Source of the DNA: Rhodospirillaceae bacterium | GTDB lineage: Bacteria; Pseudomonadota; Alphaproteobacteria; SP197 | Length of the DNA: 64,000 bases | NCBI GenBank assembly: GCA_002722885.1 | Contig: PBNE01000018.1 | Span: forward strand, 3,113 to 67,112 | Reading direction: 5' to 3' | Shown: in pieces, positions 15,489 to 42,805 of the stretch | Layout of the letters: each line of letters starts with the position of its first letter | How positions within the stretch are numbered: position 1 is the stretch's first letter | Program-made: the position numbers and the translations under genes | Notes under the pieces: model-generated | Told to the model about the DNA's origin: nothing | Seen by the model: only the letters and a program-made list of their open reading frames with translations | Databases searched by the model: none

Positions 15489-15492
15489 GGGG

Positions 15493-27719: not shown

Positions 27720-27792
27720 GTCGGTGTTTCCGGTTACAGAGCGACACGGCACCCATCCTAGAGCTTCAGGCACACCGCCGCAAAGCGGCTGT

Positions 27793-29592
27793 TCACAACC
27801 AGTCGGACTGTGTGTCCAGAACCGTTGGGTCGCCCAGTTCCGTCGGAGCAAGCCAGGCACGGGCAGGACCAAGTTCGTGCTTCACCATGTAACGCATGGC
27901 CTGCACCTTGCCGCGATAAAACAGGTCATCGTCAGCGCTGCAGCCGGTTTCGAGCGCCTGATGCGCAATCGCCGCCTGACGCAGCCACAACGCCGCGACG
28001 ACATGATGGCCAAAGCCGTAAAGAAACGTCGTGGCATGTGCCAGTGCCAGCGCGATGTGGCCCTCACCCAGTCGCGAACGCGCGGCATCAAGAGTGTCCG
28101 AGACGGCACTCCAGCCTTCGCGCACAACCGAAGCTTCATTTGTGAACCCGGCAGCATCTGCCTCCTGGGCCATGGATTCGATGTCTTCCGACAGAACCTG
28201 GAAACAAGCCCCCCCATCCATCATGGCCTTGCGCCCAAGCAGGTCCAGGCCCTGAATGCCCTGCGTGCCTTCGTGAATGGGGTTGAGCCGGTTATCGCGG
28301 TAAAGCCGCTCGACCGGAAAATCCCGGGTGTAGCCGTAGCCGCCATGTACCTGGATCGCCAGGCTGTTCGCCTCAAGGCCGAAATGGCTGGGCCAGGCCT
28401 TGGCGATCGGCGTGATGATGTCGAGCAGCTGTTTGGCCCGCTTACGGTCCTGTTCGCTCTCTGCCGTCTTTTCGTGATCGACCATCATGCCGCACCACAG
28501 GCCAAGGGCCAGACCTCCCTCCACATAGACCTTCTGCTGCAACAGCATGCGGCGGACATCGGGATGATCGACGATCGGAATCGGCGGCGATGTCGGGTCA
28601 CGACCGTCAAGCGGCCTCCCCTGCCTGCGTTCCCGCGCATAGGCCAGAGAATGGAGATAGCCGGAATATCCCAGCATCGTGGCGCCCAGGCCGACCCCGA
28701 TCCTGGCCTCGTTCATCATGTGAAACATGGCGATCAGACCGCGGTGCGGCTCACCCACCAGCTCGCCGATAGTCTCGCCCTTCTCACCGAAGTTCAGCAG
28801 GCAGTTGGTGATGCCGCGATAGCCCATCTTGTGGTTAAGGCCGGCGAGTTCGATGTTGTTGATCTCGCCAGGCCGGCCTTCGTCGTCCAGCCGATACTTC
28901 GGCACGACGAAGAGCGAGATCCCCTTCACGCCCGGCGGTGCATCGGGAAGCTTAGCCAGCACAAGATGGACGATATTCTCGGCCAGCTCATGCGCGCCGC
29001 CCGAAATCCACATCTTGTTGCCGGTGATGGCATAGGTGCCGTCGCCACGCGGCGTCGCCCGCGTACGGATATCGGCCAACGATGAACCAACGTCGGGTTC
29101 CGAAAGGCACATGGTGCCGAAGAACCGTCCCTCGTTCATCGGCGCCATGTACCGTTGCTTCTGTTCCTCGGTGCCGTGTGCTTCCAAAAGATTGGCCGCC
29201 GCCCGTGTCAGCAGCAGATAGCCGGTGGTCGAAACGTTCGCTCCCTTGAACAGGGCTGCGCAGGCCTGGCCCACGGTGAACGGAAGTTGCATGCCGCCCA
29301 GCTCTTCATCGAACGTTGCCGCAAAGAAACCGGCTTCGCGCAACTGCTCGAGCGCCGCACTGGTCTCAGGAATCTGCACAACCTTGCCGTCGGCCACAAA
29401 CGGTTCTTCGACATCGGCCCTTGCCGCATGGGGCTGCAAATGTTCGTCGGCCAGCCGGAACGCAAGATCGATCACAGCGTCAAACGACACACGATCGTGC
29501 ATGGCATAACGCGGCCGTTTCGCCAGCCGATCGGCCCCGAACACCTCGTAGAGCAGAAAATCGAGGTCCCGCCTGTTGCACACGGTCGACAT
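27793..29592 (-). CDS. Long (about 600 aa) acyl-CoA dehydrogenase, AidB/DmdC-like
   Basis: FFGTMCLSEPDVGSSL, KMWISGG, and a C-terminal extension typical of the long ACAD clade. ATG 29592 avoids overlap with the upstream gene. Confidence 0.88.
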   Translation of the reverse strand: MSTVCNRRDLDFLLYEVFGADRLAKRPRYAMHDRVSFDAVIDLAFRLADEHLQPHAARADVEEPFVADGKVVQIPETSAALEQLREAGFFAATFDEELGGMQLPFTVGQACAALFKGANVSTTGYLLLTRAAANLLEAHGTEEQKQRYMAPMNEGRFFGTMCLSEPDVGSSLADIRTRATPRGDGTYAITGNKMWISGGAHELAENIVHLVLAKLPDAPPGVKGISLFVVPKYRLDDEGRPGEINNIELAGLNHKMGYRGITNCLLNFGEKGETIGELVGEPHRGLIAMFHMMNEARIGVGLGATMLGYSGYLHSLAYARERRQGRPLDGRDPTSPPIPIVDHPDVRRMLLQQKVYVEGGLALGLWCGMMVDHEKTAESEQDRKRAKQLLDIITPIAKAWPSHFGLEANSLAIQVHGGYGYTRDFPVERLYRDNRLNPIHEGTQGIQGLDLLGRKAMMDGGACFQVLSEDIESMAQEADAAGFTNEASVVREGWSAVSDTLDAARSRLGEGHIALALAHATTFLYGFGHHVVAALWLRQAAIAHQALETGCSADDDLFYRGKVQAMRYMVKHELGPARAWLAPTELGDPTVLDTQSDWL

Positions 29593-29599
29593 GGTCGGG

Positions 29600-30223
29600 C
29601 TACAGCACCTTGAACAGCCACACCCTGTGACGCACCTCGGGCTCGCCGCCGGGCATCCCCTGGAACGGTTCACCGACGAACTGCTGCTCCCAGCGGCCCT
29701 CATTCGTCAGGCGCTCGAAGGTTTCGTAGAAACCGTCGGGCACGACATCATGGCGCAGCGTGAAGCAGATCACGCCTCCCGGCTTCACGATCCGGATCAG
29801 CTCACCAAAGCCTTCGGGCGGCGCATGGCCGGGCGTGAAGGTGCCGGCGCTGACCACGGCATCATAACTGTCGGTCTCGTAATCGAGCGGTTCACCCAGA
29901 ATGCCGACCCGGATGTCGCGGTAGACGCCGTGATCCCGGGCAATCTCCAGCATGTCGAGCGAGAGATCCAAGGCATCAAGCGTCGTGAACCCCAGCTCAC
30001 GCGCGGCCAGTCCCACGGCACCCGTGCCCGCTCCAGCGTCCAGAATCGCGGCATCATCGGCCAGTAGCGGTCGCACCTGTTGGGCAATCAGCCGCGGTCC
30101 CGACCAGCCGTAGTCGACCATGATCTGCTTGTCATAGGTCCTGGCCCACGCGTCATAGGCCTCGCGCAACTCATTGGTGGTCGAGGCGTCGTAGAGCTTC
30201 TTTAAGGCGACATGGTCGCTCAC
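29600..30223 (-). CDS. Class I SAM-dependent methyltransferase
   Basis: Motif I ILDAGAGTGAVG plus acidic post-I and motif II/III blocks. The start is uncertain (GTG 30223 or ATG 30283). Confidence 0.75.
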   Translation of the reverse strand: MSDHVALKKLYDASTTNELREAYDAWARTYDKQIMVDYGWSGPRLIAQQVRPLLADDAAILDAGAGTGAVGLAARELGFTTLDALDLSLDMLEIARDHGVYRDIRVGILGEPLDYETDSYDAVVSAGTFTPGHAPPEGFGELIRIVKPGGVICFTLRHDVVPDGFYETFERLTNEGRWEQQFVGEPFQGMPGGEPEVRHRVWLFKVL

Positions 30224-30321
30224 GGCACTCTCCCCGTTTCGGTCCCTGTGATGACCTCTCTGCGTGACCCTACCATCGCACATGATCCGTGTCAGACTGT
30301 CTGCAGATCATCTGAAGGCTG

Positions 30322-31281
30322 GTGGTGACTGTCATCGAACGATTGCGCGGCGGCAAGGCGGTCGTGCTGGACGGTGCGAACGGCACCGAGCTTGAAGAAC
30401 GCGGTGCGCCGCAGACCTCCGACGCGGCCTGGGCCGATTGCAGTGCCACCCATCCGGAGATCGTGCGCGCGGTCCATGAGGACTACATCCGCGCCGGCGC
30501 CGACATCATCACCACCAACACCTACTCCACCGGCGCCCATGTTCTGCGAACGATGGGGCGCGACGAGGTTATTGCACCCTGGAATCGCGCCTCTGTCGAC
30601 ATTGCGCGCAACGCGATCAACAACACAGCCCGGGGTCGCGAGGTTCTTGTCGCGGGATCCGCCTCGCCCTTCGGCAACGGGGCGATGCGCTATCCGAGCA
30701 TGGACGGCGCCTTTACCTGGGGTGAAGACGATCCCAACCTGCTTGCCGCGAACTACCGGGAGCAGATCGGTCACCTGGTTGAGGCAGGGATCGATCTCAT
30801 TCTGCTCGAGTTTCTTGCCGGGACCGCTGCCGACATCGAGATCGGTGTCGCCGTGGCGCGGGAGTTCGACAGGCCCGTCGTCGCGTCGCTGAGCGCAACC
30901 ATCGACGACCAGGGCACGGCGATCCTCACCAGCATCTCCGAAGCCAGTGAGGTCACGCTCGGGCATGAGACCGTGACCGACACCGTCCAGCGTATTGCGG
31001 GTTCGGGCGTCGACGCGATCTACGCCATGCATTCGGAGATCGACGAGATCGACGCCATTCTGGCGGCCATTCGCGCCGCATGGCACGGCCCGCTGGGCGC
31101 CTATCCTAACAGGACCGGATACTGTGATGGCAGCCAATGGGTTTTCACAGAGCAGGTGACACCGCAGGGCTACGCCGCCCGGGTGCAACGCTGGACCGAA
31201 CTGGGGGCAACCATGATCGGCGGCGGCGGCGGCACCACACCGGCCATGATCGAAGCCGTGGCTGGAACCCTCAAACACTAG
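30322..31281 (+). CDS. Homocysteine S-methyltransferase family protein (MmuM/BHMT-like)
   Basis: VVLDGANGTELE at the N-terminus, TNTY, and C-terminal GGCCGTTP-like IGGGGGTTPAMI. In the canonical family the last motif is Cys-rich (GGCCG), so the zinc site here looks atypical. Confidence 0.8.
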   Translation: MVTVIERLRGGKAVVLDGANGTELEERGAPQTSDAAWADCSATHPEIVRAVHEDYIRAGADIITTNTYSTGAHVLRTMGRDEVIAPWNRASVDIARNAINNTARGREVLVAGSASPFGNGAMRYPSMDGAFTWGEDDPNLLAANYREQIGHLVEAGIDLILLEFLAGTAADIEIGVAVAREFDRPVVASLSATIDDQGTAILTSISEASEVTLGHETVTDTVQRIAGSGVDAIYAMHSEIDEIDAILAAIRAAWHGPLGAYPNRTGYCDGSQWVFTEQVTPQGYAARVQRWTELGATMIGGGGGTTPAMIEAVAGTLKH

Positions 31282-33242
31282 ATTGCCATCGCGGCCTGAA
31301 GCCCTTCGACAACGGCTTCTTCTGCCGTTCGCGGCGACAACACGTCACCGATCACGTGGAGCTCGCCTGACCAGCTTTCCCGGAGTTCATCGAGCAGGGC
31401 CGAATCCCGCCTGTGGCCCTGGGCCAGGACGAGAGTCTCGACCTCCTCGGCAACCAGGGCTTCACCGTTGGTCATGTGCTGGAAAAACACGCTGTCGTCA
31501 TCGGCCCCGAACAGGCGGGCGTAGGACCTGGTCTCGACGCCCAGGCTGTCGAGCACGCCGATCCAGTGATCCCGCAGATAGGCCTGAAGGTTCTGGCCGG
31601 GCTGCGTGCCCTGGCAGTAAAGCCGAACGTGGCAGCCGTTCCGAGCCAGCATCTCAGCCACGCCCATGCCAACCCAGTCGCAGCGCCAGTCCGCAATCAC
31701 GACCTGCCCGCCGACATTGGCTTCACCGCTGATGACAGGCCACGCATCCACGGCATGCACCTCATCCAGCCCGTCGAGCGCCGGCAAATAAGGCATCGCA
31801 CCGGTGGCCACCACAACGGCGTCGGGCTCAACGGCCGCGACCATGGCCGCATCAACAGCCACGCCCTTCTTCACCGTGACACCCGCGAGTTCCATCTCGC
31901 GGCTGAGATTAGTGACGATCCCGCCGAACTCGGCACGATCCGGCAGCATCTGGGCCAAGCGGACCTGCCCGCCCAACTGATTGTCCTTCTCATAGAGCGT
32001 CACCTCATGACCGCGTTCAGCCGCAATCGCCGCGGCCTTCATGCCACCGGGTCCACCGCCTATCACCATGACCTTGCGGACCGTGGCTGTCTTCTCCTTG
32101 GCATGGGGGAAGGTCCGTTCGCGGCCGGTCTCCGGATGCTGGATACACGAGACGATCGCACCCATGTGCCGGTGGCCGATGCAGGCCTGATTGCAGGCGA
32201 TGCAGGCACGTATGTCGTCCGGCCGGCCGTCTTCGGCCTTGGCAGCAAAGAAAGGATCGGCAATCAGGGCGCGCACCAAACACACCATATCGGCCTGGCC
32301 CGAGCCGATGATCTGCTCAGCCGTCTGCGGCTGGTTGATCCGGCCTCCGAGCATCGTGGGCACAGACACGGACTGCTTCAGCGTCGCGGCCGGATCGGCC
32401 AGGTACCCCTGCTCGACAAACATCGGCGGCACGATGTGAACCGCCCCGCCGACCGAGGCACCGGAACCGCCGATGACGTTGACGTAGTCGATCAGCCCGG
32501 CGTCGGCGAGCGCCTTGGCCACAGCACTGCTCTCTTCCTGCGACAACCCGCCATAGTCCAGTTCGTCGACGGAGATCCGGATGCCGACCACGGTCTTGCT
32601 GTCGACCGAAGCACGGATGGCAGCGAGAGATTCCGTCACGAACCGCATCCGGTTCTCGAAGCTGCCGCCGTAGGTGTCGGTCCGCTGATTGGCGCGCGGA
32701 TTGACGAACTGGGCCGGCAGATAGCCCATCGAAATCATGTATTCGACACCGTCGAGCCCCGCCTCAGCCATGCGCCGTGCGCCGTCGCCGTAGGACCGGA
32801 TTATGTCCCGGATCATCGCTTCGGACATCGGGGCGGGCATCACGTGGTGACGCTCATCCGGCAGCTCCGACGGCGCATAGGCCGCGAGCAGCGCACCGTT
32901 CTTCCGGTTCGCAACGGCGCGGCCGGGGTGAAAGAGCTGCCCGAACATGCGGGCGCCATGCTTGTGGGCCACGCCCGCCATCTCCCGAAGTTCGGGAATG
33001 GCGTCATCGTCGCTCACGGCCAGCAGGTTGTGCCGCACCTCATAACTCTCATGCACCGTATGGGCCTCGGTGATGATCAGCCCCACGCCCCCCTGTGCGC
33101 GCGCCTCATGATAGGCCACGAGATCAGGCATGGTGCCCGGAGCGCGGCCCTGGCTGGTGCCGTGCGGCCCGAAAATCACCCGGTTCTTCATTTCGAGGGC
33201 GCCCAATTCGATGGGCTGGAAGAGATGCGGAAACCTGGTCAT
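31278..33242 (-). CDS. NADH:flavin oxidoreductase (OYE domain + 4Fe-4S + FAD/NAD(P) domain), StcD/DgcA-like N-methyl amino-acid demethylase family, paralogue 1
   Basis: FPHLFQPIELGALEMKNR (OYE N-terminus), CIACNQACIGH...C Fe-S motif, VMVIGGGPGGMKAA dinucleotide fold. 654 aa from ATG 33242. Confidence 0.88.
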   Translation of the reverse strand: MTRFPHLFQPIELGALEMKNRVIFGPHGTSQGRAPGTMPDLVAYHEARAQGGVGLIITEAHTVHESYEVRHNLLAVSDDDAIPELREMAGVAHKHGARMFGQLFHPGRAVANRKNGALLAAYAPSELPDERHHVMPAPMSEAMIRDIIRSYGDGARRMAEAGLDGVEYMISMGYLPAQFVNPRANQRTDTYGGSFENRMRFVTESLAAIRASVDSKTVVGIRISVDELDYGGLSQEESSAVAKALADAGLIDYVNVIGGSGASVGGAVHIVPPMFVEQGYLADPAATLKQSVSVPTMLGGRINQPQTAEQIIGSGQADMVCLVRALIADPFFAAKAEDGRPDDIRACIACNQACIGHRHMGAIVSCIQHPETGRERTFPHAKEKTATVRKVMVIGGGPGGMKAAAIAAERGHEVTLYEKDNQLGGQVRLAQMLPDRAEFGGIVTNLSREMELAGVTVKKGVAVDAAMVAAVEPDAVVVATGAMPYLPALDGLDEVHAVDAWPVISGEANVGGQVVIADWRCDWVGMGVAEMLARNGCHVRLYCQGTQPGQNLQAYLRDHWIGVLDSLGVETRSYARLFGADDDSVFFQHMTNGEALVAEEVETLVLAQGHRRDSALLDELRESWSGELHVIGDVLSPRTAEEAVVEGLQAAMAI

Positions 33243-33246
33243 GCCA

Positions 33247-35211
33247 TCACACCTTGAACGCCACTTGCAGGCCTTCCAGTACGGCCTCTTCCACCGTTCT
33301 GGGGGCCAGAGCATCACCGATGATGTGGAGCTCGACATCGCCGCCGTAAAGCTCCTCCCACAGCGCCGCCTCGCGTTTATGAGGCGCGGCCAGCACGAGG
33401 GTCTCTACATCGTCACAGATGATCGGCACACCGCTGGTGACATGCTGCATAAAGACGGAGGTGTCGTCACAGCCATAGAGGCGGGGGTATGGAATGACCT
33501 CGACCCCAAACTTGTGGAGCTGCCCCATCCAGCCGTCGCGCACCATCATCGGCAGGTGTTCGCCGGGCATCGGCCCATTCACGCACAGCCTGACCGAACA
33601 GCCATCCCGTGCCAGCTTCTCGGCGACGCCTAGACCGATCCAATTAGCGTGCCAGTCATAAACCACAACCTTGCCACCCACATTGGCCGTACCCCTGGCC
33701 ACATCCCAGGCACCGACCACATGCGCCTGGTCCATGCCTTCCAGATCGGGGCGCTGTTCGGTCGCACCGGTCGCCATGATCAGGACATCGGGCGCCTCGG
33801 CCTCGATCAGAGCCCGCGTCGCTTCGGTGCTCTTGCGGATGTCGACGCCATGAATCTCACATTCACGGGTCAGGTTCGTCACGATGCCGCCGAACTCAGC
33901 GCGTCCAGGGAGGAGCTGGGCGATGGCCGCCTGGCCACCGAGCTGCGGTGAGCGTTCAAGCAAGATGACACGATGGCCTCGCTCGGCCGCCACAGCCGCC
34001 GCTTTCATGCCACCCGGTCCGCCGCCGACCACCAGCACATGACGTGCGGTCTCGGCCTTCGGTTTGGCGTAATAGTCGAGCTCACGGCCTGTTTCCGGAT
34101 GCTGGATGCAGGAAATCGGGAACCCTCGCAGACGATGACCGATGCAGGCCTGGTCGCAGGCGATGCAGGCACGAATGTCATCCACCCGTCCGTCACGCGC
34201 CTTGTTGACAAACTCGGGGTCGGCAATGTGGCCCCGAACGATGCCGACCATGTCGGCCTGGCCGCTGGCGACGATCTCTTCGGCGATCTGCGGCTGGTTG
34301 ATTCGACCTGCGATCATCACGGGCAGGCGCTTCACTGCGGATTTCAGTTCGCCCGACTTCTGGCCCGTGTAGCCGGCGTCGTACTGCATATGCGGGATAA
34401 TGTGCTGCCAGCCTGTGTAGGTCGCTGTCGAGCCCAGCACAATGTTGAGATAGTCGAGCACACCATCGGCATCGAGCGCGGCGCAGGCTTCGCGCGACTC
34501 CTCAATTGTAAGCCCCTCTTCGTCCATCTCGTCAGCCGAAATGCGCAGACCCAGGATCATGTCATCCCCGATCTTGGCCCTGATGTCGCCCGCGACCTCT
34601 CGCACGAAGCGCATGCGGTTTTCGAAGTTGCCGCCGTACTCGTCGGTCCTGCGATTGAGCCTGGGATTGATGAACTGGCTGGCGAGGTAACCCATCGACG
34701 AAATTATCTCGACCCCATCGAGTCCGGCCTCCGCCATCCGCGCCGCGCCATCACCATGGGCCGTAACGATCTCCCGGATCAGGTCGGCCGTCAGTGGCGT
34801 GGGTACGGTCTTGTACATCTCATCGGGCACCTCGGACGGCGCATAGGCCGTCATCTTGGTGCCGTCGATCGAGGCTGCCGCCACCCGGCCGGGATGGAAC
34901 ACCTGACCGATGATAGTCACACCGTAGTCCCGGCCCTTCTGTCCCAGCCGTTTTAGACCCGGCAAGCACTCGTCATTGGAAGCCCAGGCGCGGCCCTGTG
35001 GCATGTAGGTCGGATGCACGCAGTGGACTTCTGTCATGATCATGCCGACACCGCCTCGCATCCGCGCCTCGTGATAGGCGATCATCGCATCACCAACGCG
35101 GCCACCCTCACTCAACGCGGTATTGTGGCCGGGAACGAAGACCCTGTTCTTGATTTCCTTTCCGCGAATCTCCAGCGGCGAAAACAGGTGGGGAAACTGC
35201 GGGTGACTCAC
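33247..35211 (-). CDS. NADH:flavin oxidoreductase, StcD/DgcA-like, paralogue 2
   Basis: Same architecture (FPHLFSPLEIRGKEIKNR, CIACDQACIGH, VLVVGGGPGGMKAA). The GTG start at 35211 overlaps the upstream stop (GTGA). Confidence 0.88.
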   Translation of the reverse strand: MSHPQFPHLFSPLEIRGKEIKNRVFVPGHNTALSEGGRVGDAMIAYHEARMRGGVGMIMTEVHCVHPTYMPQGRAWASNDECLPGLKRLGQKGRDYGVTIIGQVFHPGRVAAASIDGTKMTAYAPSEVPDEMYKTVPTPLTADLIREIVTAHGDGAARMAEAGLDGVEIISSMGYLASQFINPRLNRRTDEYGGNFENRMRFVREVAGDIRAKIGDDMILGLRISADEMDEEGLTIEESREACAALDADGVLDYLNIVLGSTATYTGWQHIIPHMQYDAGYTGQKSGELKSAVKRLPVMIAGRINQPQIAEEIVASGQADMVGIVRGHIADPEFVNKARDGRVDDIRACIACDQACIGHRLRGFPISCIQHPETGRELDYYAKPKAETARHVLVVGGGPGGMKAAAVAAERGHRVILLERSPQLGGQAAIAQLLPGRAEFGGIVTNLTRECEIHGVDIRKSTEATRALIEAEAPDVLIMATGATEQRPDLEGMDQAHVVGAWDVARGTANVGGKVVVYDWHANWIGLGVAEKLARDGCSVRLCVNGPMPGEHLPMMVRDGWMGQLHKFGVEVIPYPRLYGCDDTSVFMQHVTSGVPIICDDVETLVLAAPHKREAALWEELYGGDVELHIIGDALAPRTVEEAVLEGLQVAFKV

Positions 35212-36347
35212 GTCATCGCCTCCACGATGAGATTGGCAAAATGCTGTGCCTGACGGTCCCAGATATCCGACAGGACGCCGCCGTCGAAGGCCGGGGAGTG
35301 GCGGCCGGTCTGCATCCACTCGATCGCACCGATGTCTTCCCGGTTCAACTCATCCCACATATCCGCAACACTCTGTGCCGCCTCGGCATAGGCGGGATCG
35401 GTTGTCGCCTCACCGATCAGGAAGATGTGCAGGTTCTCGACCGTGTGTTCGGGCCCAATGGGGAAAAGCTGGAAAACAGTCAGCTGGTCGGGCCAGAGCT
35501 GAAGACAACAGCTCGGAAACAGGAAGTACCCGCCCGCGAAGCGCGCTTGGTCTCCAGTGAGCCCCGGATACCAAGGCAGCCCCACGCCCCGTCCCTTCTG
35601 CGGCTCATCGATCAGGTATTCCGTGCGCAGCAGACCACCGTCGATCTGAAACGCCGACCGCTTGCTCAGCGGATAGAAGGCGTTAAGGCGAGGGTGAATT
35701 GTCGGGATGTGGTGGTTGTCGAAGTAGTTCTCGAAGACCAGTTTCCAGTTTGCTTTGAACTCCCACTCGACCGTCTTGTAGAGACGCAGCGCACCAAGGT
35801 CGTGTTTCGGAAGCCGGTTGGCCAGGGTCGCAATGAAATCCTCGAACGGCGCGGCCTGACCATCGAGGTTGAGAAAGATCATGCGGAACCAACGGCCCAG
35901 CCGTATAGGGACCAGACCGGGCCCGCTCCGCGACAGGTCGTGACGGTTCGCCCCCTCGAAGTGCGGTCGTGTTCGCAGCGCACCATCCAGACTATAGGCC
36001 CAGGCGTGATAGGGACAGGTCAGGACCGTCTGGTTGCTGCAGGGCTCTTCAACAACGATTGCCCCCCGATGACGGCAAACATTGTGGAAGGCCCTGATCT
36101 CACCATCGTGACCGTGAACAAGAACCACAGGCTTGCCTGCGATGGTTGTGGGAAACGCGTCGCCGGGTTCGGCAATCTGATCCAGACACCCGGCAAACAT
36201 CCATGTTCTTGCGAACAGGCGCTCGTTTTCGAGCTCCAGCCAGGCAGGGTCGGTGTAGCAGGTGTTGGGCAGACAGCTTCCACCGTCACCGGTAGGCCGT
36301 GACAGCCGGTCCCTGACTTCGGGTGTGATGAACGGCTCGATATTCAC
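35208..36347 (-). CDS. Rieske [2Fe-2S] non-haem-iron oxygenase alpha subunit, paralogue 1 (Stc2/GbcA-type betaine demethylase-like)
   Basis: Rieske motif CRHRGAIV-x-CPYHAWAY and mononuclear iron motif ENYFDNHHIPTIHP. The GTG start at 36347 overlaps the upstream stop (GTGA). Confidence 0.88.
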   Translation of the reverse strand: MNIEPFITPEVRDRLSRPTGDGGSCLPNTCYTDPAWLELENERLFARTWMFAGCLDQIAEPGDAFPTTIAGKPVVLVHGHDGEIRAFHNVCRHRGAIVVEEPCSNQTVLTCPYHAWAYSLDGALRTRPHFEGANRHDLSRSGPGLVPIRLGRWFRMIFLNLDGQAAPFEDFIATLANRLPKHDLGALRLYKTVEWEFKANWKLVFENYFDNHHIPTIHPRLNAFYPLSKRSAFQIDGGLLRTEYLIDEPQKGRGVGLPWYPGLTGDQARFAGGYFLFPSCCLQLWPDQLTVFQLFPIGPEHTVENLHIFLIGEATTDPAYAEAAQSVADMWDELNREDIGAIEWMQTGRHSPAFDGGVLSDIWDRQAQHFANLIVEAMT

Positions 36348-37483
36348 GCCATGGACTCGACAACAAGTTTCGCGAAATGCTGATGCGACGGATCCCAGTG
36401 TCCCGACAGAATCCCGCCGTCGAAAGCCGGTGAATAACGGCCTTGCTGCATCCACTCGATTGCGTTGATGTCTTCACGATTCAGCTCGTCCCACATGTCG
36501 TAGACACCTTGCCGTGCGCCTCCAAAGGCACCGTCCGTCGCGGCATCGCCGATCATAAAGACATGCAGGTTCTCGATCGTGTGATCCGGTGCAACCGGCA
36601 GGACCTGAAACACCGTGAGTTGATCAGGCCAGATTTGGTAACAGCAGCTTGGGAACAGGTGATAGCCGCCTTCCAACCGCTCAAGCTCCGGCGTCAGGCC
36701 GGGGTAATAGGGCAGCCCTACACCGCGCCCTCCCTCGGGTTCACCGAAGGCTACCTCGGTGTGGAACAGCTTGTCTTCGAATTCGAACCCCTGACGTGAG
36801 GTCATCAGTGCAAAGGCGTCGAGCCGGGGGTGGATGGCGAAGATGTGGTAGTTTTCGAAGTAGTTCTCGAAGACCAGCTTCCAGTTCGCTTTGACCTCCC
36901 ACACCAGAGTCTTCGCCAGCCGAAGCGCGGAGAGATCGTGGCCGGAAAGACGCCGTGCGAGCGGAGCGATATAGTCTTCGAACGGCGCAGCCTTGCCGTC
37001 GAGATTGAGAAAGATGGTGCGGTGGAACAGGCCCAGCCTGATCGGTACAAGCCCCGGCCCGTCCCTTGAGACGTCATGCACATCGGCACCGTTGAAATGC
37101 GGGTGCGTCCGCAGCTTGCCACCCAGTCCATAGGCCCAGGCGTGATAAGGGCAGGTCAGCACCGACTGGTTGCTGCAGGCCTGTTCGGCCACAATCGCAC
37201 TGCGGTGCCGGCAGACGTTGTGAAAGGCTCTGATCTCGCCATCACGTCCATGAACCAGAACCACAGGCTTGTTGCCGATGGTCGTGGGAAACACGTCGCC
37301 GGGTTGCGGCACATTGTCGATCGACCCCGCAAACATCCAAGTTTGCGCAAACAGGCACTCGTTCTCAAGTTCGAGCCAGCCGGAATCGGTGTAACAGGCA
37401 TTCAGCAGACACGCGGCGCCCTCGCCTGTCGGCCGCGACAATCGGTCCATGGTCTCTTTTGGGATCAAGAACGGGATGCCCAT
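36344..37483 (-). CDS. Rieske non-haem-iron oxygenase alpha subunit, paralogue 2
   Basis: CRHRSAIV..CPYHAWAY and ENYFENYHIFAIHP. Aligns with paralogue 1 from the N-terminus (GIPFLIPKETMDRLSRPTG vs NIEPFITPEVRDRLSRPTG). The ATG 37483 start overlaps the upstream gene by 19 nt. Confidence 0.85.
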   Translation of the reverse strand: MGIPFLIPKETMDRLSRPTGEGAACLLNACYTDSGWLELENECLFAQTWMFAGSIDNVPQPGDVFPTTIGNKPVVLVHGRDGEIRAFHNVCRHRSAIVAEQACSNQSVLTCPYHAWAYGLGGKLRTHPHFNGADVHDVSRDGPGLVPIRLGLFHRTIFLNLDGKAAPFEDYIAPLARRLSGHDLSALRLAKTLVWEVKANWKLVFENYFENYHIFAIHPRLDAFALMTSRQGFEFEDKLFHTEVAFGEPEGGRGVGLPYYPGLTPELERLEGGYHLFPSCCYQIWPDQLTVFQVLPVAPDHTIENLHVFMIGDAATDGAFGGARQGVYDMWDELNREDINAIEWMQQGRYSPAFDGGILSGHWDPSHQHFAKLVVESMA

Positions 37484-38673
37484 GGCCGCCTCGCCTCGTG
37501 GGCGATCATGAGGTCGGCGATCTGGCGGCCGAAATGCTGTGTCGCCGGATCCCAGAAAGGCGAGAACGCACCGCCGTCGAAGCCCGGCGAGACACGTCCG
37601 GCCTGCATGGATTCCAGCGGGTGGATATCCTCCTGATTCAGGGAATCCCATGTCTCGAACACCTTCGCACGCGTCTCATCGTACTGCCCCGCCATCGCCT
37701 CGCTCGGAAAGACGATGTGGATCATCTCCCTGGTCCTGCCCGGTGCTACAGGCTCCGCCACCAGAAAGGCGATGTGATCGGGCCAGATGTTGATGTTGCA
37801 GGTCGGCGTCACGGTAAACATGCGCCCTTCCCGGTGCAGCACGTCCGGCAGCCCCTCAAAGTAAGGCAGGCCTTGCCCCCTGCCCTCATGCGGTTTGGCG
37901 ATCACATGCCATGTCATTGTCATGTGCTGTGCGACCGGCGTCATCGGGTTGCTGGTTTCCATCGGAGCGAACTCACACAGCGCCGGGTGGATCGCGAACT
38001 TGTGGTAGACGTCGATGAAGTTCTCGTGGATGTGCTTCCAGTTGGCGTCGATGTCGTAGGTCAGGCACCCGCCGTGGGTGAAGTCGCGGCTTTCCCAGCC
38101 ATCCAGGTGCGCGTCGGCTGGCGCCATGTGTTCGGCCAGCGGCGCGGCGTCGCCCGAAATGTTCACGAACAGCACCCCGCGCCAGCTCTCGCAGCGCACG
38201 GGACGCAGGTTGCCGCGCTCATCGCCATCCTGCAGGACATCATGGTTGCCGCCACCCCGGAAATGCGGACGGGTCCGCAGCTTGCCGTCCAGGCCGTAGG
38301 CCCAGCCGTGATAGGGACAGGTGAAGGCCGCCAGCCTGCTGCAGGGTTCAGTCACGATCACCGCGCCGCGATGGCGACAGACATTGTGGAAGGCCCCGAT
38401 CGAACCGTCGTGATGCCGGACAAGGACGATCGGGCAGCCGGCCACGCGAACCGGCAGAGCATCGCCCGGCGCCAGAATCTGGCTTTCAAATCCGACCAGC
38501 ATCCACATTGGCCATATCAGGTGACGTCGTTCCAGTTCGAGCCAGTCGTTGCTGGTGTATGCGACATTGGGAAGAGCGCTGCCGTCGTCCACACCGGCAT
38601 GAAGCCGGATAAGGGCCTCCGCACCCAGAATGTCGGTCACACGGCTCGCAGCCGTCCGGTCGGCAGATGACAC
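37465..38673 (-). CDS. Rieske non-haem-iron oxygenase alpha subunit, paralogue 3 (more divergent)
   Basis: CRHRGAVIV..CPYHGWAYGLDG and ENFIDVYHKFAIHP. GTG start at 38673. Confidence 0.85.
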   Translation of the reverse strand: MSSADRTAASRVTDILGAEALIRLHAGVDDGSALPNVAYTSNDWLELERRHLIWPMWMLVGFESQILAPGDALPVRVAGCPIVLVRHHDGSIGAFHNVCRHRGAVIVTEPCSRLAAFTCPYHGWAYGLDGKLRTRPHFRGGGNHDVLQDGDERGNLRPVRCESWRGVLFVNISGDAAPLAEHMAPADAHLDGWESRDFTHGGCLTYDIDANWKHIHENFIDVYHKFAIHPALCEFAPMETSNPMTPVAQHMTMTWHVIAKPHEGRGQGLPYFEGLPDVLHREGRMFTVTPTCNINIWPDHIAFLVAEPVAPGRTREMIHIVFPSEAMAGQYDETRAKVFETWDSLNQEDIHPLESMQAGRVSPGFDGGAFSPFWDPATQHFGRQIADLMIAHEARRPWASRS

Positions 38674-38696
38674 GGCGATCTTACCTCTTACTTATC

Positions 38697-38724
38697 CGTG
38701 AAAACTCTTCCATGTAATTTCACG
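38697..38724. promoter_or_regulatory. Operator-like site A: CGTGAAA-N14-TTTCACG
   Basis: Perfect 7-bp inverted half-sites with a 14-nt spacer, 24-51 nt upstream of the Rieske paralogue 3 start. The same architecture recurs at 39888 and 45664. Confidence 0.5.
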
Positions 38725-38761
38725 CAACACAACACTCGAGAGCGGAGGAACATCCAGATCG

Positions 38762-39844
38762 TCAGGGATCGTTCGGCTGCACCACGACGTGACGTAGTCC
38801 GAGACCGCTTTCCTCCGCCTTGAGAAGCGCAGCCATGGTCTCCTCAAGCGGATAAACGATCGGTTCAACCGCCGAAAGATCGAGCTGCCCGGACGCGATC
38901 ATGGCGACCATGTGGTGGCCGGCCTCACGCGGGAACCAGATCGAGCCGATGATGTGAAGTTCCTGGAACAGGATGTCTTCATAGACAAGCGTCAGCGGGT
39001 CGGTGAACCCGACCCCCACCAGAGCGGCGCGCCCACCCTGGCCGAGACCGGCGAGCGCTGCCATCGTAGCCTCAGGCGCTGCCCCGTATCCGATCGCATC
39101 CAACATGACATCGGCGCCGCCACCGGCGGCATCACGGATGGCCGCGCCGTCGCTGTCGTCGCCGTTCAACACCACGGGCACGATCCGATTCGGCGCGAGC
39201 GCGGTCAGTTCATCGAGCAACGCCCGCCTGCGCCCGGTCGCCACAATGCGTGTGGCACCCATGGCAAGCGCCATCAAAACGCCCGACGCGCCGACCTGTC
39301 CTGTGGCGCCGCTGACAATCACGGTCTCACCCGGCTGCAGGTCCGCGTTCAGAAAGCCGCCGTAGGCTGTGCCGATCCAGCCCAGGCGCACCAGTTGCGC
39401 TGGCGTCGCTTTCTCTGTCGCCCGGCCCAGGCGCACCATGCACTCGGCGGGCTGGATCATCTGTTCCGCGAAGTTACCGTTCCGCCAGCGGGCCAGCGGC
39501 CGGTCCGATTGCTCCCCGAGCCCGAAGGATGCCAGCAAGCACCGGTCGTCGATGCCACCGGCAACCCGCGAACCATAAAAGTGGTCGCAATAGACGAGAT
39601 CGCCCGGGGCCACATGTGTGACACCGTCGGCCACGGCTCTCACGCGACCGATCGTATCCAGCCCCGGAACAAAGGGCTTCGGCGGAAACATCATGTCGGG
39701 CGGGTTTCTGATCCGCTCGGCCAGTCCACCAGTGCCGAAGGCCGCCACCACGTCCACAATTACGGAATCAGGCAACATCTCCGGCTCCGGAATGTCTTCC
39801 ATCACCAGTTCGCTGTTGTCTTCGTGCCAGACCGCCGCACGCAT
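38762..39844 (-). CDS. Medium-chain dehydrogenase/reductase (zinc-ADH/quinone oxidoreductase superfamily)
   Basis: MRAAVWHE..., GroES-like N-domain, Rossmann motif VIVSGATGQVG. First gene of the minus-strand operon. ATG 39844 was chosen over 39880. Confidence 0.85.
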   Translation of the reverse strand: MRAAVWHEDNSELVMEDIPEPEMLPDSVIVDVVAAFGTGGLAERIRNPPDMMFPPKPFVPGLDTIGRVRAVADGVTHVAPGDLVYCDHFYGSRVAGGIDDRCLLASFGLGEQSDRPLARWRNGNFAEQMIQPAECMVRLGRATEKATPAQLVRLGWIGTAYGGFLNADLQPGETVIVSGATGQVGASGVLMALAMGATRIVATGRRRALLDELTALAPNRIVPVVLNGDDSDGAAIRDAAGGGADVMLDAIGYGAAPEATMAALAGLGQGGRAALVGVGFTDPLTLVYEDILFQELHIIGSIWFPREAGHHMVAMIASGQLDLSAVEPIVYPLEETMAALLKAEESGLGLRHVVVQPNDP

Positions 39845-39887
39845 CGCTGCCTCCCCTTTTGCGAATGAAAACGCTACCACCCTTCTT

Positions 39888-39915
39888 CGTGAAATTGTTT
39901 TCCATCTTTTTCACG
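39888..39915. promoter_or_regulatory. Operator-like site B: CGTGAAA-N14-TTTCACG
   Basis: Identical half-sites and spacing to site A, in the divergent intergenic region between the MDR gene and the decayed Rieske gene. The spacer again contains TTCCAT. Confidence 0.5.
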
Positions 39916-39958
39916 AACTGAGTTAGAATGTCATCAACGCATTTGCCGGGGTCATGCC

Positions 39959-41083
39959 ATGTCCGCAAAAACCGCCGAAGCACTGGGCTTCGACATCGCT
40001 GAAATCGAGGATAGGATCGCCAACAACTGGAGCCTTCCGACCCGCTGTTACTGGGATCAGGACATCTTCGATTTCGATCTCGAAGCGATCTTTGCCAGGC
40101 GCTGGCAGTTCTTCTGTCCCGTACACAAGGTGATGAAGCCGGGTGACGTGGCCGTCCGGCAGGTAGGCCGGTATCCCGTTGTAGTCACTTGCGACCGCAA
40201 CGGCAGGCTGCAAGGCTTTCTCAACATCTGTCGCCACCGAGGCTACACAGTGGCCGAACGGGATCAGTAGAAGTGCCTCAGGCTCGTGCGCCGCTATCAC
40301 GGCTGGTCCTACAACCTCGACGGAGCGCTGGCACACGCCCCTGACGCCGACGGCGAAGCCGGGTTCTGCAAGGACGATCTGAGTCTCAGGCGGGTTGCGG
40401 TCGACCAGTGGGGAGCAGCGATCTTCATCCATCCGGATCCCCAGGCCGCCTGCATGCGCGAGACGTATCCTACTTTGTTCGAAACCGCCGACGAGATCGC
40501 CTTTGATCCCGATCCGGCAGAGTGGATTCCGTACAAGGAGGTCGTCTACGACATCCCGACCAACTGGAAGCTTTGGTACGATAACGGGACGGTGTGCTAC
40601 CACTGCCCCACGATCCACGAGAGCTCATTTGCCGACAGCTATGACTCCGGCGAAGGCAGCTACAGTTCGGAGATGGGGCCGGGCTATCTGATGAGCCACT
40701 ATCTCAACAAGCCCGGCGACCGGCGCAACGCCCCCATCGAGACCGAGCAGTATGCCTTCCAGGTCTTCCCCGGCTTCGTCTGCATCGGAGAGGGCGACAT
40801 CCTGCATATGACCGGCATGGTGCCGATCTCAGCCGGACGAACCCACCATGTCACACACTGGCTGGCGCGTCCTGGAACCGATCCGGACTACTCCAGAACG
40901 TTATCGGATGTCTGGGACCAGACCTACCGTGAAGACAACGCGGCCACATCCGACCAGTACAACAACCTTGCCGTGGGCCATCAGGACTGGAATCGTTATG
41001 TGGCAGGCCGGGAGTTCGGTGCGGTTCACATGAGCCGCACCATCTGGGACCACTACAAGGCCGCACTTTCGCCTGTCCACTGA
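39959..41083 (+). pseudogene. Rieske oxygenase alpha subunit (GbcA/CntA-like CYHC subtype) disrupted by an in-frame TAG and lacking a Rieske Cys ligand
   Basis: ORFs 39959..40270 and 40286..41083 are in the same frame, separated by TAG at 40268. The sequence reads CRHRGYTVAERDQ*KCLRLVRRYHGWSY, whereas the paralogues have C-P-Y-H at that position (Cys to Arg). Confidence 0.75.
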
Positions 41084-41134: not shown

Positions 41135-41524
41135 ATGACCGATCGACGCAAGGAACTCGAAGAGCTCACACATCAGTTCGTTGACTGCTTCAACCGTCAG
41201 GACATTGACGGGATCGCGGCCTTCTTTGCCGAAGACGGAGTCTATGAGGATTCCAACGGCGGCAGCCACACGGGGCCCGCCGCTATCAAGGAAGCGTTTG
41301 TGCCGCTGGTCTGCGGCAGTCGCGGCAAGATCAGCTTTGATGACGAGGACTTTTTCGCTGAGCCCGAGTCCGACAAAGTCATGGCGAGCTGGACGCTCAA
41401 CATGGAGATCGAAGGCAAGCCGATGAGGCTGCGCGGGCTGGATCTACTTCATTTCCGCGGTGACAAGCTCGTGCGCAAGATGGCGTATTGCAAGGCCGCA
41501 GCGCCCCAGCTCACCGAGGGCTGA
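41135..41524 (+). CDS. SnoaL-like/NTF2-fold protein
   Basis: 129 aa. FVDCFNRQDIDGIAAFFAEDGVYEDSNG is the typical SnoaL_2 N-terminal pattern. Confidence 0.8.
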   Translation: MTDRRKELEELTHQFVDCFNRQDIDGIAAFFAEDGVYEDSNGGSHTGPAAIKEAFVPLVCGSRGKISFDDEDFFAEPESDKVMASWTLNMEIEGKPMRLRGLDLLHFRGDKLVRKMAYCKAAAPQLTEG

Positions 41525-41689
41525 AGACACCAACCGGGCCTGTCTAAGAATCGGTTTCTTCGGTTGCATAAGGACTCGCAAATCTAAAAAGTACGGGGCA
41601 TGTTTGTCATCTGACTGCACAAGAATGCGGCTTCAACGGCTGCGGAAACTACGCATCCTCGAGAGATGTTTGAGACAAGGGAGAACACC

Positions 41690-42622
41690 ATGGGAGTTCT
41701 GAGTAGAAAACTGTTGGGTGCTGTTGCAGGCACCGTTATGGCGATGAGTGTTGCTGGAACAGCAACGGCCGACGTACCGGAAAGTGACCGGGCGATCATT
41801 ATTCCGCTCCATAACTGGACCGGAGCCACCATCGGCGGTGCGATCGCCGGCCAGATTCTTCAGGACATGGGCTACAACGTCGAGTTTGTGGCCGTGGGTG
41901 CGCTGGCTGCAGCACAGGCCATCGCAGACGGTGATGTGACCTTCACACCTGAACTCTGGGACAACAACCTCGGCGAGCTCTATCCGACCCTGATGGCAGA
42001 AGGCAAGATTGTTGACTTGGGTGAGGTCGGCATTGACGCACGCGAGGGCTGGCTCTATCCCATTCATGTCGAAGAACTCTGCCCCGGCCTGCCCGACTGG
42101 GAGGCCTTCTTGGGCTGTTCCGAGATTTTCGCAACGCCTGAGACCTTCCCCAACGGCCGTTACCTCGACTACCCCGCCGAGTGGCTGAGCCGTGGTGGCG
42201 ATATGGTGCGCAACGAAGGCCTGCCGTTCGACGTCGTACCCGCCGGATCGGAAGGCGCTCTGGTTGCCGAGCTGAACTCCTCTGTCGACCGTCAGTCTGC
42301 CCTGATCATGATGTTCTGGGCGCCGCACTGGGTCCTGTTCAAGCATGACTACAACTGGGTCGAGATGCCGACGGACCTGGTCGAGAAGTACAGCATGCAG
42401 AAGCCGCGCGTGTTCAAGGCCGGTTGGCCCGGTATGTTCGATGAATGGCCGGTGGCTTCGAACTTCATCCAGAGCTTCCAGATCGACAACGCGGCGCAGG
42501 AAGTCCTGATGGATGAGATCGACAACAAGGGTGTGCCCCTGATGGAGGCCACCCGTGCGTGGATCGACGCCAATCCCGACAAGTGGCAGCCCTTCGTGGA
42601 CGAAGCCATGGCGGGCAGCTGA
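41690..42622 (+). CDS. Glycine betaine/proline betaine-type ABC substrate-binding protein (OpuAC/ProX family)
   Basis: Signal peptide, then PLHNWTGATIGG..., TFTPELWDNN and GWLYP aromatic-box-like motifs typical of OpuAC. ATG 41690 is preceded by GGGAGA. Confidence 0.85.
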   Translation: MGVLSRKLLGAVAGTVMAMSVAGTATADVPESDRAIIIPLHNWTGATIGGAIAGQILQDMGYNVEFVAVGALAAAQAIADGDVTFTPELWDNNLGELYPTLMAEGKIVDLGEVGIDAREGWLYPIHVEELCPGLPDWEAFLGCSEIFATPETFPNGRYLDYPAEWLSRGGDMVRNEGLPFDVVPAGSEGALVAELNSSVDRQSALIMMFWAPHWVLFKHDYNWVEMPTDLVEKYSMQKPRVFKAGWPGMFDEWPVASNFIQSFQIDNAAQEVLMDEIDNKGVPLMEATRAWIDANPDKWQPFVDEAMAGS

Positions 42623-42686: not shown

Positions 42687-42805
42687 TCGGCCCGAACTTG
42701 CCGATCATGGCCACAACAGGCTCGGGGCAAAGCAACTCAGGCTGCTTGAACCCGCCGATACAACCCGTCACGATGGCCGCAGCGAACCAACTTCGAGGAT
42801 CCGAC

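Follow-up and report, generated by a model that had tools for sequence, protein, structure and literature searches.

An operon of Rieske oxygenases and OYE-type iron-sulfur flavoproteins from a marine alphaproteobacterium, with a possible role in quaternary-amine catabolism

Introduction

Methylated amines and betaines serve the oceans as major currencies of carbon, nitrogen and energy, and the known aerobic routes (GbcAB, CntAB, BHMT and MtgBCD) leave some degraders unexplained. In proline-betaine catabolism, a Rieske enzyme acts first and a flavin-dependent second demethylase follows (PMC3950512). The present work concerns a six-gene operon on the minus strand (31278-39844) of a 64,000-nucleotide stretch of DNA from a Rhodospirillaceae bacterium (assembly GCA_002722885.1, contig PBNE01000018.1, positions 3,113 to 67,112), hereafter called the window. 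The operon is real, conserved and uncharacterised, and is a variant of the "Rieske oxygenase plus Fe-S flavoprotein" logic of betaine catabolism; a search of the accessible literature found no paper describing this cluster. The favoured reading, to which we give a probability of about 0.4, is that it forms part of a co-regulated module with which an uncultured marine alphaproteobacterium would break down one or several quaternary-ammonium (choline- or betaine-type) compounds. Gene content, motifs, translational coupling, synteny and a shared palindrome are the observations on which this reading is built.

Among the group V Rieske oxygenases, the position two residues ahead of the bridging carboxylate is taken by an aromatic pi-cation residue in group Va (CntA, choline monooxygenase, OxyBAC) and by Asn in group Vb (GbcA, BmoA, Stc2) (Quareshy et al., PMC7948474), and some group V members have a Cys-x2-Cys pair beside the iron site (PMC10952381). 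CntA cleaves carnitine to trimethylamine and malic semialdehyde, with no methyl removal (PMC7948474, PMC10952381). On the flavoprotein side, the sole OYE-family N-methylproline demethylase characterised in vitro is OYEBi, which belongs to a sequence similarity network (SSN) cluster with a modified C-x2-A-x-x-C motif (PMC11759058). The 2-naphthoyl-CoA reductase (NCR) has no canonical NAD(P)H loop, yet it is a reductase fed by a low-potential protein donor (PMC6502838).

Organization of the operon

From first gene to last, the operon reads:

38762-39844, minus strand: MDR, a dehydrogenase of the zinc-type alcohol dehydrogenase superfamily (Pfam ADH_N and ADH_zinc_N)
37465-38673, minus strand: Rk3 ("RkA" type), alpha-only Rieske oxygenase (Pfam Rieske and Ring_hydroxyl_A)
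36344-37483, minus strand: Rk2 ("RkB" type, copy 2), Rieske oxygenase with the same two Pfam domains
35208-36347, minus strand: Rk1 ("RkB" type, copy 1), Rieske oxygenase with the same two Pfam domains
33247-35211, minus strand: OYE2 ("OYEa"), 654 aa, flavoprotein (Pfam Oxidored_FMN and Pyr_redox_2)
31278-33242, minus strand: OYE1 ("OYEb"), 654 aa, flavoprotein with the same two Pfam domains

Open reading frames (ORFs) and Pfam matches confirmed the order given in a preliminary description of this DNA, namely an MDR dehydrogenase, three alpha-only Rieske oxygenases and two OYE/[4Fe-4S]/FAD flavoproteins. That description had judged Rk1 and Rk2 to be about two-thirds identical over their N-terminal halves and Rk3 more divergent, which agrees with the values obtained here: 64% (BLASTP) or 68% (alignment) between Rk1 and Rk2, versus ~41-42% between Rk3 and either of them. 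All three Rieske proteins retain the C-x-H...C-x2-H ligands and the [D/E]-x2-H-x4-H iron site, so the earlier statement that both motifs are intact also holds. The two flavoproteins are 53% identical to each other and keep the C-x2-C-x3-C-x11-C motif and the first GGGPGG nucleotide loop. The Fe-S motif and the FAD part of the FAD/NAD fold ascribed to them therefore stand; the NAD(P)H part does not, since that loop is degenerate in both proteins. The MDR enzyme has only weak PDB matches (~1e-15) to alcohol dehydrogenases.

The genes are tightly packed. The Rk2/Rk1 and Rk1/OYE2 junctions are GTGA start/stop overlaps, OYE2 and OYE1 are separated by 4 nt, and the ATG of Rk2 lies inside the 3' end of Rk3 (overlap of 19 nt). 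Translational coupling joins five of the operon genes. The MDR gene, whose ATG is preceded by a GGGGAGG ribosome-binding site, is followed by an 88-nt spacer and the GTG start codon of Rk3. A scan for sigma-70 promoters and terminators gave no signal above background. The alike N-terminal ORF extensions of Rk1, Rk2 and OYE2 were considered as a repeated intergenic element, and this was rejected: the likeness stems from the 3' ends of the Rieske genes upstream, which are homologous and appear there in a different frame. Neither a beta subunit nor an FNR/ferredoxin-type reductase nor a small ferredoxin was detected in the 64 kb by Pfam searches of the sizeable ORFs and a motif scan of ORFs of at least 50 aa, in line with the lack of a beta subunit and of a GbcB/CntB-type reductase or ferredoxin noted before.

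A palindrome shared with a third flavoprotein gene

Three parts of this region had been overlooked: a Rieske pseudogene, a third flavoprotein gene and an operator-like palindrome common to their promoters and that of the operon.

39886-39917, no strand: palindrome copy 1, TTCGTGAAA-N14-TTTCACGAA, a perfect 9-nt inverted repeat in the MDR/Rk4 divergent promoter region
38695-38726, no strand: palindrome copy 2, GTGAAA-N14-TTTCAC, in the 88 nt that separate MDR from Rk3, ~25 nt ahead of the Rk3 GTG
45665-45690, no strand: palindrome copy 3, GTGAAA-N14-TTTCAC, 73 nt upstream of OYE3
39959-41083, plus strand: Rk4 ("RkC" type), Rieske pseudogene, divergent from MDR
45763-47832, plus strand: OYE3, an amine dehydrogenase of the histamine-dehydrogenase/trimethylamine dehydrogenase (TMADH) family by its PDB matches and covalent-FMN Cys

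The form with perfect 9-nt arms is unique in the window, with 0 occurrences expected, and the shorter GTGAAA-N14-TTTCAC gave 6 strand-matches (3 sites) versus 0.25 expected. Seven distinct related loci were compared with the window: L001/2, L003-5, L089/90, L091/92, L099, L105 and a JGI contig. Across 1.77 Mb of loci, the shorter form is almost confined to the equivalent promoter regions of the syntenic L089/L090, L091 and L099, and in relatives the palindrome is also present at the promoters of the class II aldolase and OpuAC genes. As the palindrome is common to the promoters of OYE3 and of the Rieske/flavoprotein operon, in relatives as well as in the window, the two are apparently members of a single regulon. 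MDR may be partly regulated on its own, since copy 2 lies upstream of Rk3. The sole candidate regulator for the palindrome in the window is the XRE-cupin protein encoded at 27078-27872.

OYE3 matches histamine dehydrogenase best (3k30, 9e-239, 798 bits), followed by 6l6j (9e-210) and TMADH (6e-166). It has the VPHC motif, with the Cys for 6-S-cysteinyl-FMN, and the equivalent of Trp264. The hallmarks of the TMADH/histamine dehydrogenase family (the FMN Cys, the Tyr-His-Asp triad and C-x2-C-x2-C) are found in OYE3 and not in OYE1 or OYE2. Five of the eight proposed histamine-binding residues (as given in PMC10180351) differ in its pocket, so its substrate is probably another amine; for the same reason, a role as the histamine dehydrogenase that ends a trimethylhistamine demethylation chain was unsupported. 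OYE3 is conserved beside the Rieske clusters of L003, L089, L091 and L099.

Rk4, in turn, is a decaying pseudogene. An in-frame TAG (40268-40270) stands where its orthologues have Ser or Thr, a Cys ligand of the Rieske cluster is lost (CRYH to RRYH) and the bridging Glu is replaced by Val. The RkC orthologues in L089, L091, L099 and L105, which are 52-59% identical to Rk4, are intact and have E-C-Y-H-C at the iron site. Pyrrolysine insertion or read-through at the TAG was rejected, as the Cys ligand and the bridging Glu are lost as well.

Conservation in related loci

OYE1 of the window is identical to proteins on TARA Oceans metagenome contigs, and TARA contigs that match the window identically show the synteny in addition to the seven related loci. 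Close relatives are labelled "MAG: Alphaproteobacteria bacterium" (MAG, metagenome-assembled genome) by NCBI, and other relatives come from MAGs with names that suggest sponge metagenomes (e.g. RHO1_bin_48, GCA_028821455.1). Four groups of genes recur in these loci. The first is a divergent RkC (with SnoaL) and the second [MDR]-RkA-RkB-OYEa-[OYEb], where brackets mark genes that may be missing. The third is made up of an S-methyltransferase-domain gene in convergent orientation and of genes for a small methyltransferase, a large acyl-CoA dehydrogenase and an XRE-cupin regulator, and the fourth of OpuAC, class II aldolase, sulfatase and OYE3 genes.

By alignment, Rk3 is the orthologue of RkA (67-70% identical to the first Rieske protein of the syntenic loci), while Rk1 and Rk2 both correspond to RkB (63-78%), Rk1 being 74-75% identical to the L089 and L091 proteins and Rk2 71% to that of L003. 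OYE2 corresponds to OYEa and OYE1 to OYEb, with 77-86% and 76-83% identity, respectively, to their L003 and L099 counterparts. MDR is accessory: it is present in L001 and the JGI contig and missing from L003, L091 and L099. The Rieske complement varies from locus to locus. The window has RkA, two RkB and a dead RkC; L099, L091 and the JGI contig have RkA, RkB and RkC; L003 has RkA and RkB with no divergent RkC; L089 has RkB and RkC with one flavoprotein; L001 has MDR, an RkA fragment and RkB with no flavoprotein nearby; and L105 has the OYEa-OYEb pair with RkC only, plus OpuAC, TauD, FMO-like and DAO genes. Five of the seven related loci thus keep the flavoprotein pair, whereas the oxygenases are exchanged from one locus to another, a pattern that fits several oxygenase front ends supplying one shared flavoprotein step. 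The "multi-substrate hub" proposed in the preliminary description fits this pattern; the StcD/GbcA-type demethylation that went with it does not fare as well, as set out below.

The Rieske oxygenases

Rk1-3 have the alpha-only architecture of group V, a Rieske [2Fe-2S] domain plus a 2-His-1-carboxylate domain, and no beta-subunit gene was found in the window or in the syntenic loci. Among solved structures, Stc2, CntA and a Ruegeria homologue are closest to them, and the alpha subunits of ring-hydroxylating dioxygenases come after these. For Rk1, the PDB matches were 6e-37 (Stc2), 2e-34 (CntA) and 1e-33 (3n0q) versus 6e-28 or weaker for the dioxygenase alpha subunits.

It had been proposed that Rieske enzymes of the Stc2/GbcA type remove the first methyl group here and flavoproteins of the StcD/DgcA type the second and third, acting either on several betaines or sequentially on one compound. 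Part of the premise, that CntA removes a methyl group, was wrong, as CntA releases trimethylamine (PMC7948474). The pathway logic itself has a precedent in the Rieske enzyme and flavin-dependent demethylase of proline-betaine catabolism (PMC3950512), and an OYE/Fe-S flavoprotein has N-methylproline demethylase activity in vitro (PMC11759058); two flavoproteins would also suit two successive demethylations. Moreover, a gene for a GFA formaldehyde-activating enzyme lies directly upstream of one 51%-identical homologue of these Rieske proteins. The sequence comparisons point the other way. Rk1-3 share only 26-29% of their residues with E. coli YeaW (CntA) and with the Stc2-like pSymA protein of Sinorhizobium meliloti. 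Against NF058607, the NCBIfam equivalog model for GbcA glycine betaine monooxygenase (cutoff 670 bits), they score 118-141 bits, below the cutoff and over model positions ~28-227 (the Rieske domain) only, whereas the pSymA protein scores 471 bits over its full length. Because of this difference, Rk1-3 are placed outside the GbcA/Stc2 N-demethylase clade by this model. They form an uncharacterised clade of their own, which carries the label "choline monooxygenase" in the JGI automatic annotation.

At the iron site, the motif is ENFIDVYHKFAIH (D-V-Y-H) in Rk3, ENYFENYH in Rk2 and ENYFDNHH in Rk1. The bridging residue is thus Asp in Rk1 (D-N-H-H) and Rk3, and Glu in Rk2 (E-N-Y-H). Two positions before it stands a Tyr in Rk1 and Rk2 and a Phe in Rk3, versus the Asn of Stc2, GbcA and BmoA, which also argues against the proposed demethylation cascade. 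However, this residue is a weak discriminator: since Tyr or Phe occurs in 96 of 103 homologues of all kinds, it would exclude group Vb only and assign no reaction positively.

On S. meliloti pSymA (404-406.5 kb; L008 9177-11505), a Rieske gene of the GbcA/Stc2 clade (motif ENNRECYHC) is followed immediately by a gene for an FNR/[2Fe-2S] reductase. No OYE-type gene was found on pSymA 395-445 kb around this Stc2-like gene, which agrees with the report of stcD on pSymB (PMC12239276).

The flavoproteins OYE1 and OYE2

The best PDB scores of OYE1 were obtained with FadH (270 bits), NCR (255 bits) and TMADH (192 bits). The best NCBIfam model for both proteins is mycofact_OYE_2 (TIGR03997), at 563 and 588 bits, below its cutoff of 793, and no mycofactocin genes were seen in the Pfam scans of the window. 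OYE1 and OYE2 are 32-33% identical to FadH, 28-29% to TMADH and 32-34% to flavoproteins of rhizobial betaine/proline-betaine transporter clusters. Their identity is higher (50-57%) to proteins from Shinella, Paracoccus aminophilus and a Rhodospirillaceae isolate, none of them characterised. The closest homologues from named organisms (50-54%) are encoded beside cupin-domain proteins, with transporter or hydroxyproline-catabolism genes nearby, and a look-up of the cluster names of six flavoprotein relatives returned generic names only.

Like StcD, DgcA and OYEBi, the two proteins combine OYE FMN, Fe-S motif and FAD-fold domains (~650-690 aa). Their Fe-S motifs (CIACNQAC in OYE1, CIACDQAC in OYE2) are the canonical four-Cys type, versus CVGAN-YC in a Rhizobium homologue linked to an electron-transfer flavoprotein (ETF), and the C-x2-A motif of the SSN cluster of OYEBi is absent. 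The StcD/DgcA-like identity given to them earlier does not appear to be specific, with ~33% identity to the rhizobial betaine-cluster proteins, used as stand-ins for StcD and DgcA, and to FadH alike. As far as these comparisons reach, the operon would belong to neither the GbcA/Stc2 nor the DgcA/StcD families. The four-Cys motif and the low identity to the rhizobial proteins weigh against the cascade of demethylations, as does the lack of an adjacent Stc3/GbcB/HpbC-type reductase or an ETF gene; the degenerate NAD(P)H loop, which OYE1 and OYE2 share with the rhizobial flavoproteins, speaks for it. Overall, we regard that cascade as doubtful.

In place of the NADPH loop of FadH (IIGCGGIG), OYE1 has VIADWRCDWVG and OYE2 VVYDWHANWIG (V-x-x-D-W-x-x-x-W-x-G). 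This is a D-x4-aromatic stretch like that of TMADH (ILNADTYFMAP), and the rhizobial betaine-cluster flavoproteins have the same. Because the NAD(P)H loop is missing, the redox partner of OYE1 and OYE2 is probably a protein and not NAD(P)(H). The direction of electron flow is not fixed by sequence, because NCR lacks the loop as well and yet acts as a reductase.

The two flavoproteins could also be read as C=C or aromatic/heteroaromatic reductases of the FadH/NCR kind on a CoA-dependent route, with the Rieske enzymes preparing or finishing the carbon skeleton and N-demethylation not required. FadH and NCR are their top characterised matches, with NCR aligned over its full length, and the catalytic Tyr of FadH (G-Y) is kept. 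NCR, which likewise has no canonical loop, takes electrons from a low-potential protein donor (PMC6502838). In L089, the Rieske, flavoprotein, methyltransferase and acyl-CoA dehydrogenase genes are co-directional with gaps of 10-32 nt, and in the window a CoA ligase gene follows OYE3. On the other hand, the identity to FadH (32-33%) is no better than that to the amine-cluster flavoproteins, and Met/Ile and Met stand where ene-reductases have their substrate-activating His/Asn pair. The OpuAC, sulfatase, histamine-dehydrogenase-like OYE3 and XRE-cupin genes of the window indicate amines, and in L105 the flavoproteins occur with DAO, TauD, FMO-like and OpuAC genes and no acyl-CoA dehydrogenase. 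This reductase role is unlikely in our view.

A function of OYE1 and OYE2 as trimethylamine or dimethylamine dehydrogenases after a CntA-like cleavage was also considered and was unsupported, since the catalytic and bowl residues of TMADH are absent. At the position of TMADH Cys30, OYE1 and OYE2 have Gly and Asn, and at that of His172, Met.

The electron donor of the oxygenases

Neither the 64 kb nor the syntenic loci yielded an FNR/ferredoxin reductase or an ETF. An iterated hidden Markov model search that started from E. coli YeaX and covered all ORFs of 98 loci, within a range of 10 kb, detected an FNR/[2Fe-2S] reductase in ~10 of the ~80 loci that have 30-46%-identical Rieske homologues (among the matches listed). 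The absence of an adjacent reductase is therefore typical of this Rieske radiation and is weak evidence that the flavoproteins are the donor.

The preliminary description had named the Fe-S flavoproteins as one possible electron donor. In its fullest form, this idea is a closed redox loop in which the flavoproteins oxidise a tertiary or secondary amine and hand its electrons straight to the Rieske clusters, so that an NAD(P)H-dependent reductase would not be needed. The absence of a reductase and an ETF from the window and from every syntenic locus would suit such a loop, as would the GTGA overlap of the Rk1 stop with the OYE2 start, found likewise in relatives, and the need of OYE1 and OYE2 for a protein partner. 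The electron balance also fits, with two electrons used per oxygenation and two freed per dehydrogenation. Against it, absence of a reductase is normal among the homologues; L001/L002 have MDR-RkA-RkB with no flavoprotein nearby; and L105 has the flavoprotein pair with neither RkA nor RkB. The acyl-CoA dehydrogenase of the cluster needs an ETF too, and since no ETF is encoded locally, it must be encoded elsewhere. In addition, we know of no precedent for an Fe-S flavoprotein feeding Rieske clusters directly, which counts against the loop. Direct donation is thus possible in principle and not favoured, and we hold it to be quite improbable. If true, product oxidation would drive the oxygenolytic attack on a quaternary amine, and the flavoproteins would be a new class of Rieske redox partner.

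Genomic neighbourhood

The genes around the operon and OYE3 are the following:

41135-41524, plus strand: SnoaL-like gene, after Rk4 (80% identical to the L099 SnoaL-like protein)
41666-42622, plus strand: OpuAC-type (betaine/choline) substrate-binding protein (Pfam OpuAC, 2e-33)
42698-43564, plus strand: class II aldolase/adducin-family protein (Pfam; NCBIfam PRK07044, 265 bits, cutoff 207)
43581-45017, minus strand: sulfatase related to choline sulfatase (Pfam Sulfatase; NCBIfam choline-sulfatase, 296 bits, below the cutoff of 433)
47845-49452, plus strand: acyl-CoA synthetase (AMP-binding), directly downstream of OYE3 (Pfam; reaches no NCBIfam cutoff)
30322-31281, plus strand: homocysteine S-methyltransferase-domain protein (Pfam S-methyl_trans, 1.5e-44), convergent with OYE1 with a 4-nt overlap
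29600-30283, minus strand: small methyltransferase (Pfam)
27793-29703, minus strand: large acyl-CoA dehydrogenase with Acyl-CoA_dh_C (Pfam)
27078-27872, minus strand: XRE-cupin regulator (Pfam; 61% identical to that of L099)

Several of these genes are conserved. The SnoaL-like gene follows RkC in relatives, with Pfam matches in L089 and L099 too; the OpuAC gene is kept in L003, L099, L105 and the JGI contig; the aldolase has an 82%-identical orthologue in L091; and sulfatase orthologues in L001, L003 and L091 are 71-82% identical. The S-methyltransferase-domain gene occupies the same position in L003, L101 and the JGI contig. Its product scored below the cutoffs of the BHMT and MmuM models, and its methyl donor is possibly betaine or a sulfonium compound.

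Upstream in the window, on the minus strand, lies a large amine-assimilation block (4669-25155):

4669-8680, minus strand: polyamine-type ABC transporter
9856-12710, minus strand: two glutamine-synthetase-like ligases (best models type III glutamine synthetase and gamma-glutamylputrescine synthetase, below cutoff)
13884-17340, minus strand: choline-dehydrogenase-subfamily GMC enzyme (618 bits, cutoff 605) and aldehyde dehydrogenase
19776-22295, minus strand: GltD-like protein of 839 aa with an unassigned C-terminal half, part of a split glutamate-synthase-like set
22310-24262, minus strand: fused GXGXG and Glu_synthase protein of the same set
24244-25155, minus strand: GATase of the same set

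By analogy, this block is reminiscent of N-methylglutamate-type pathways.

Two other regions were noted. A 643-aa ORF (50810-52741, plus strand) matches no Pfam family even at E = 0.05. The stop codon of this ORF and the start of a DUF3726 gene (52738-53442) overlap, arginase-family and FAA-hydrolase genes come next, and the ORF looks like a real operon gene. At 60300-64000, the G+C content falls from ~63% to 51-55%. This segment, which includes a 622-aa ORF (61703-63571) with only a weak GHKL-ATPase (HATPase_c) match, may be foreign DNA.

Proposed function

The quaternary-amine reading is favoured because the nearest solved relatives of the Rieske proteins are Stc2 and CntA, no beta subunit is present and the clade is labelled "choline monooxygenase" by JGI. 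Their ~50%-identical relatives, moreover, adjoin genes for a genuine choline sulfatase (Choline_sulf_C), a GMC oxidoreductase, a GFA formaldehyde-activating enzyme or a class II aldolase. It is also favoured because the window contains the OpuAC gene, the choline-sulfatase-like sulfatase, the choline-dehydrogenase-subfamily GMC enzyme and the gamma-glutamyl-amine-type ligases. The quaternary-amine setting claimed in the preliminary description is supported by the first three of these and by the homocysteine S-methyltransferase-domain gene.

We infer the substrate class, the regiochemistry, the direction of electron flow and the order of steps as follows. RkA (Rk3) and RkB (Rk1 and Rk2) would be substrate-specific, O2-dependent front ends, RkC having decayed here. 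As monooxygenases, they would hydroxylate a carbon beside the charged nitrogen, either a methyl group, leading to demethylation, or a chain carbon, as in CntA or choline monooxygenase. The OYEa/OYEb pair (OYE2/OYE1) would then oxidise a common downstream amine intermediate at the FMN. From there, the electrons would travel via the [4Fe-4S] cluster to an acceptor that is a protein and not NAD(P)+, with the housekeeping ETF as the simplest candidate. The MDR enzyme may handle an alcohol or aldehyde function, the Rieske reductase would be encoded elsewhere in the genome, and OYE3, the sulfatase, the class II aldolase protein and OpuAC would serve the same regulon.

Several points weigh against this reading. 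In both the RkA/RkB clade and the OYE1/2 subfamily, all members are without a characterised function and their database names are uninformative. Of the features typical of group V, the bridging Glu is missing from Rk1 and Rk3, and a Cys-x2-Cys pair is missing from all of Rk1-3. The top-scoring characterised relatives of OYE1 and OYE2, FadH and NCR, are C=C reductases and stand above TMADH, whose Cys30, His172 and aromatic bowl (Tyr60/Trp264/Trp355) OYE1 and OYE2 lack. There is no ETF gene near the operon, and the nearby acyl-CoA dehydrogenase and CoA ligase could indicate CoA-ester chemistry. Finally, the conserved gene order has limited independent weight, because most of the syntenic loci come from close relatives (proteins 70-87% identical).

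The module is present in TARA Oceans and sponge-associated alphaproteobacteria. It joins two uncharacterised clades, the Rieske proteins labelled as choline monooxygenases and the OYE/Fe-S flavoproteins with no NAD(P)H site, and the palindrome ties in a histamine-dehydrogenase-like enzyme and a sulfatase. Assignment of a substrate would give a meaning to thousands of marine metagenome genes now annotated as "FAD-dependent oxidoreductase" or "ring-hydroxylating dioxygenase" and reveal the redox partner of a large OYE subfamily that lacks the NAD(P)H site.

Comparison with known systems

The homarine (hom) operon is unrelated to the operon described here. With the group V Rieske oxygenases, Rk1-3 share the alpha-only Rieske and catalytic domains, all metal ligands, Stc2 and CntA as best structures, and a setting with a betaine-binding protein and choline-type genes; the aromatic residue two positions before the bridging carboxylate occurs in CntA and choline monooxygenase too, as it does in most homologues of all kinds. 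They differ by their 26-29% identity to YeaW and the Stc2-like protein, the absence of Cys-x2-Cys and the Asp bridge of Rk1 and Rk3. Moreover, the group V systems CntAB, GbcAB, BmoAB, Stc2/3 and HpbBC are two-component, whereas here tandem RkA-RkB genes occur with no adjacent FNR/[2Fe-2S] reductase in the window or in the syntenic loci.

OYE1 and OYE2 resemble TMADH, dimethylamine dehydrogenase and histamine dehydrogenase in the three-domain plan of FMN, [4Fe-4S] and ADP/FAD-fold domains and in the degenerate NAD(P)H loop. They differ from TMADH in identity (28-29%), in the spacing of the Fe-S motif (C-x2-C-x3-C versus C-x2-C-x2-C) and in having no Cys30, His172 or bowl. With FadH and NCR, of the 2-enoate-reductase OYE subfamily, they share the four-Cys spacing, the G-Y tyrosine and the GxGxxG loop for FAD; unlike FadH, to which they are 32-33% identical, they have no GxGxxG for NADPH, and their genomic context is of the amine type, not the fatty-acid or aromatic type of FadH and NCR.

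A further comparison is with the proline- and hydroxyproline-betaine pathways, namely Stc2-Stc3-Stc4-StcD of S. meliloti and HpbB1C1/HpbB2C2 with HpbA of Paracoccus and Rhodobacter (PMC3950512, PMC11759058). As in these, the Rieske step would come first and a flavoprotein would then act on the amine product, one genome would hold paralogous Rieske systems whose roles overlap, and a betaine transporter component is encoded nearby. The present operon differs in that it has no reductase partner gene, another Rieske clade and an uncharacterised subfamily of flavoproteins that are kept as a pair, and in its apparent co-regulation with a sulfatase-linked, histamine-dehydrogenase-like enzyme.

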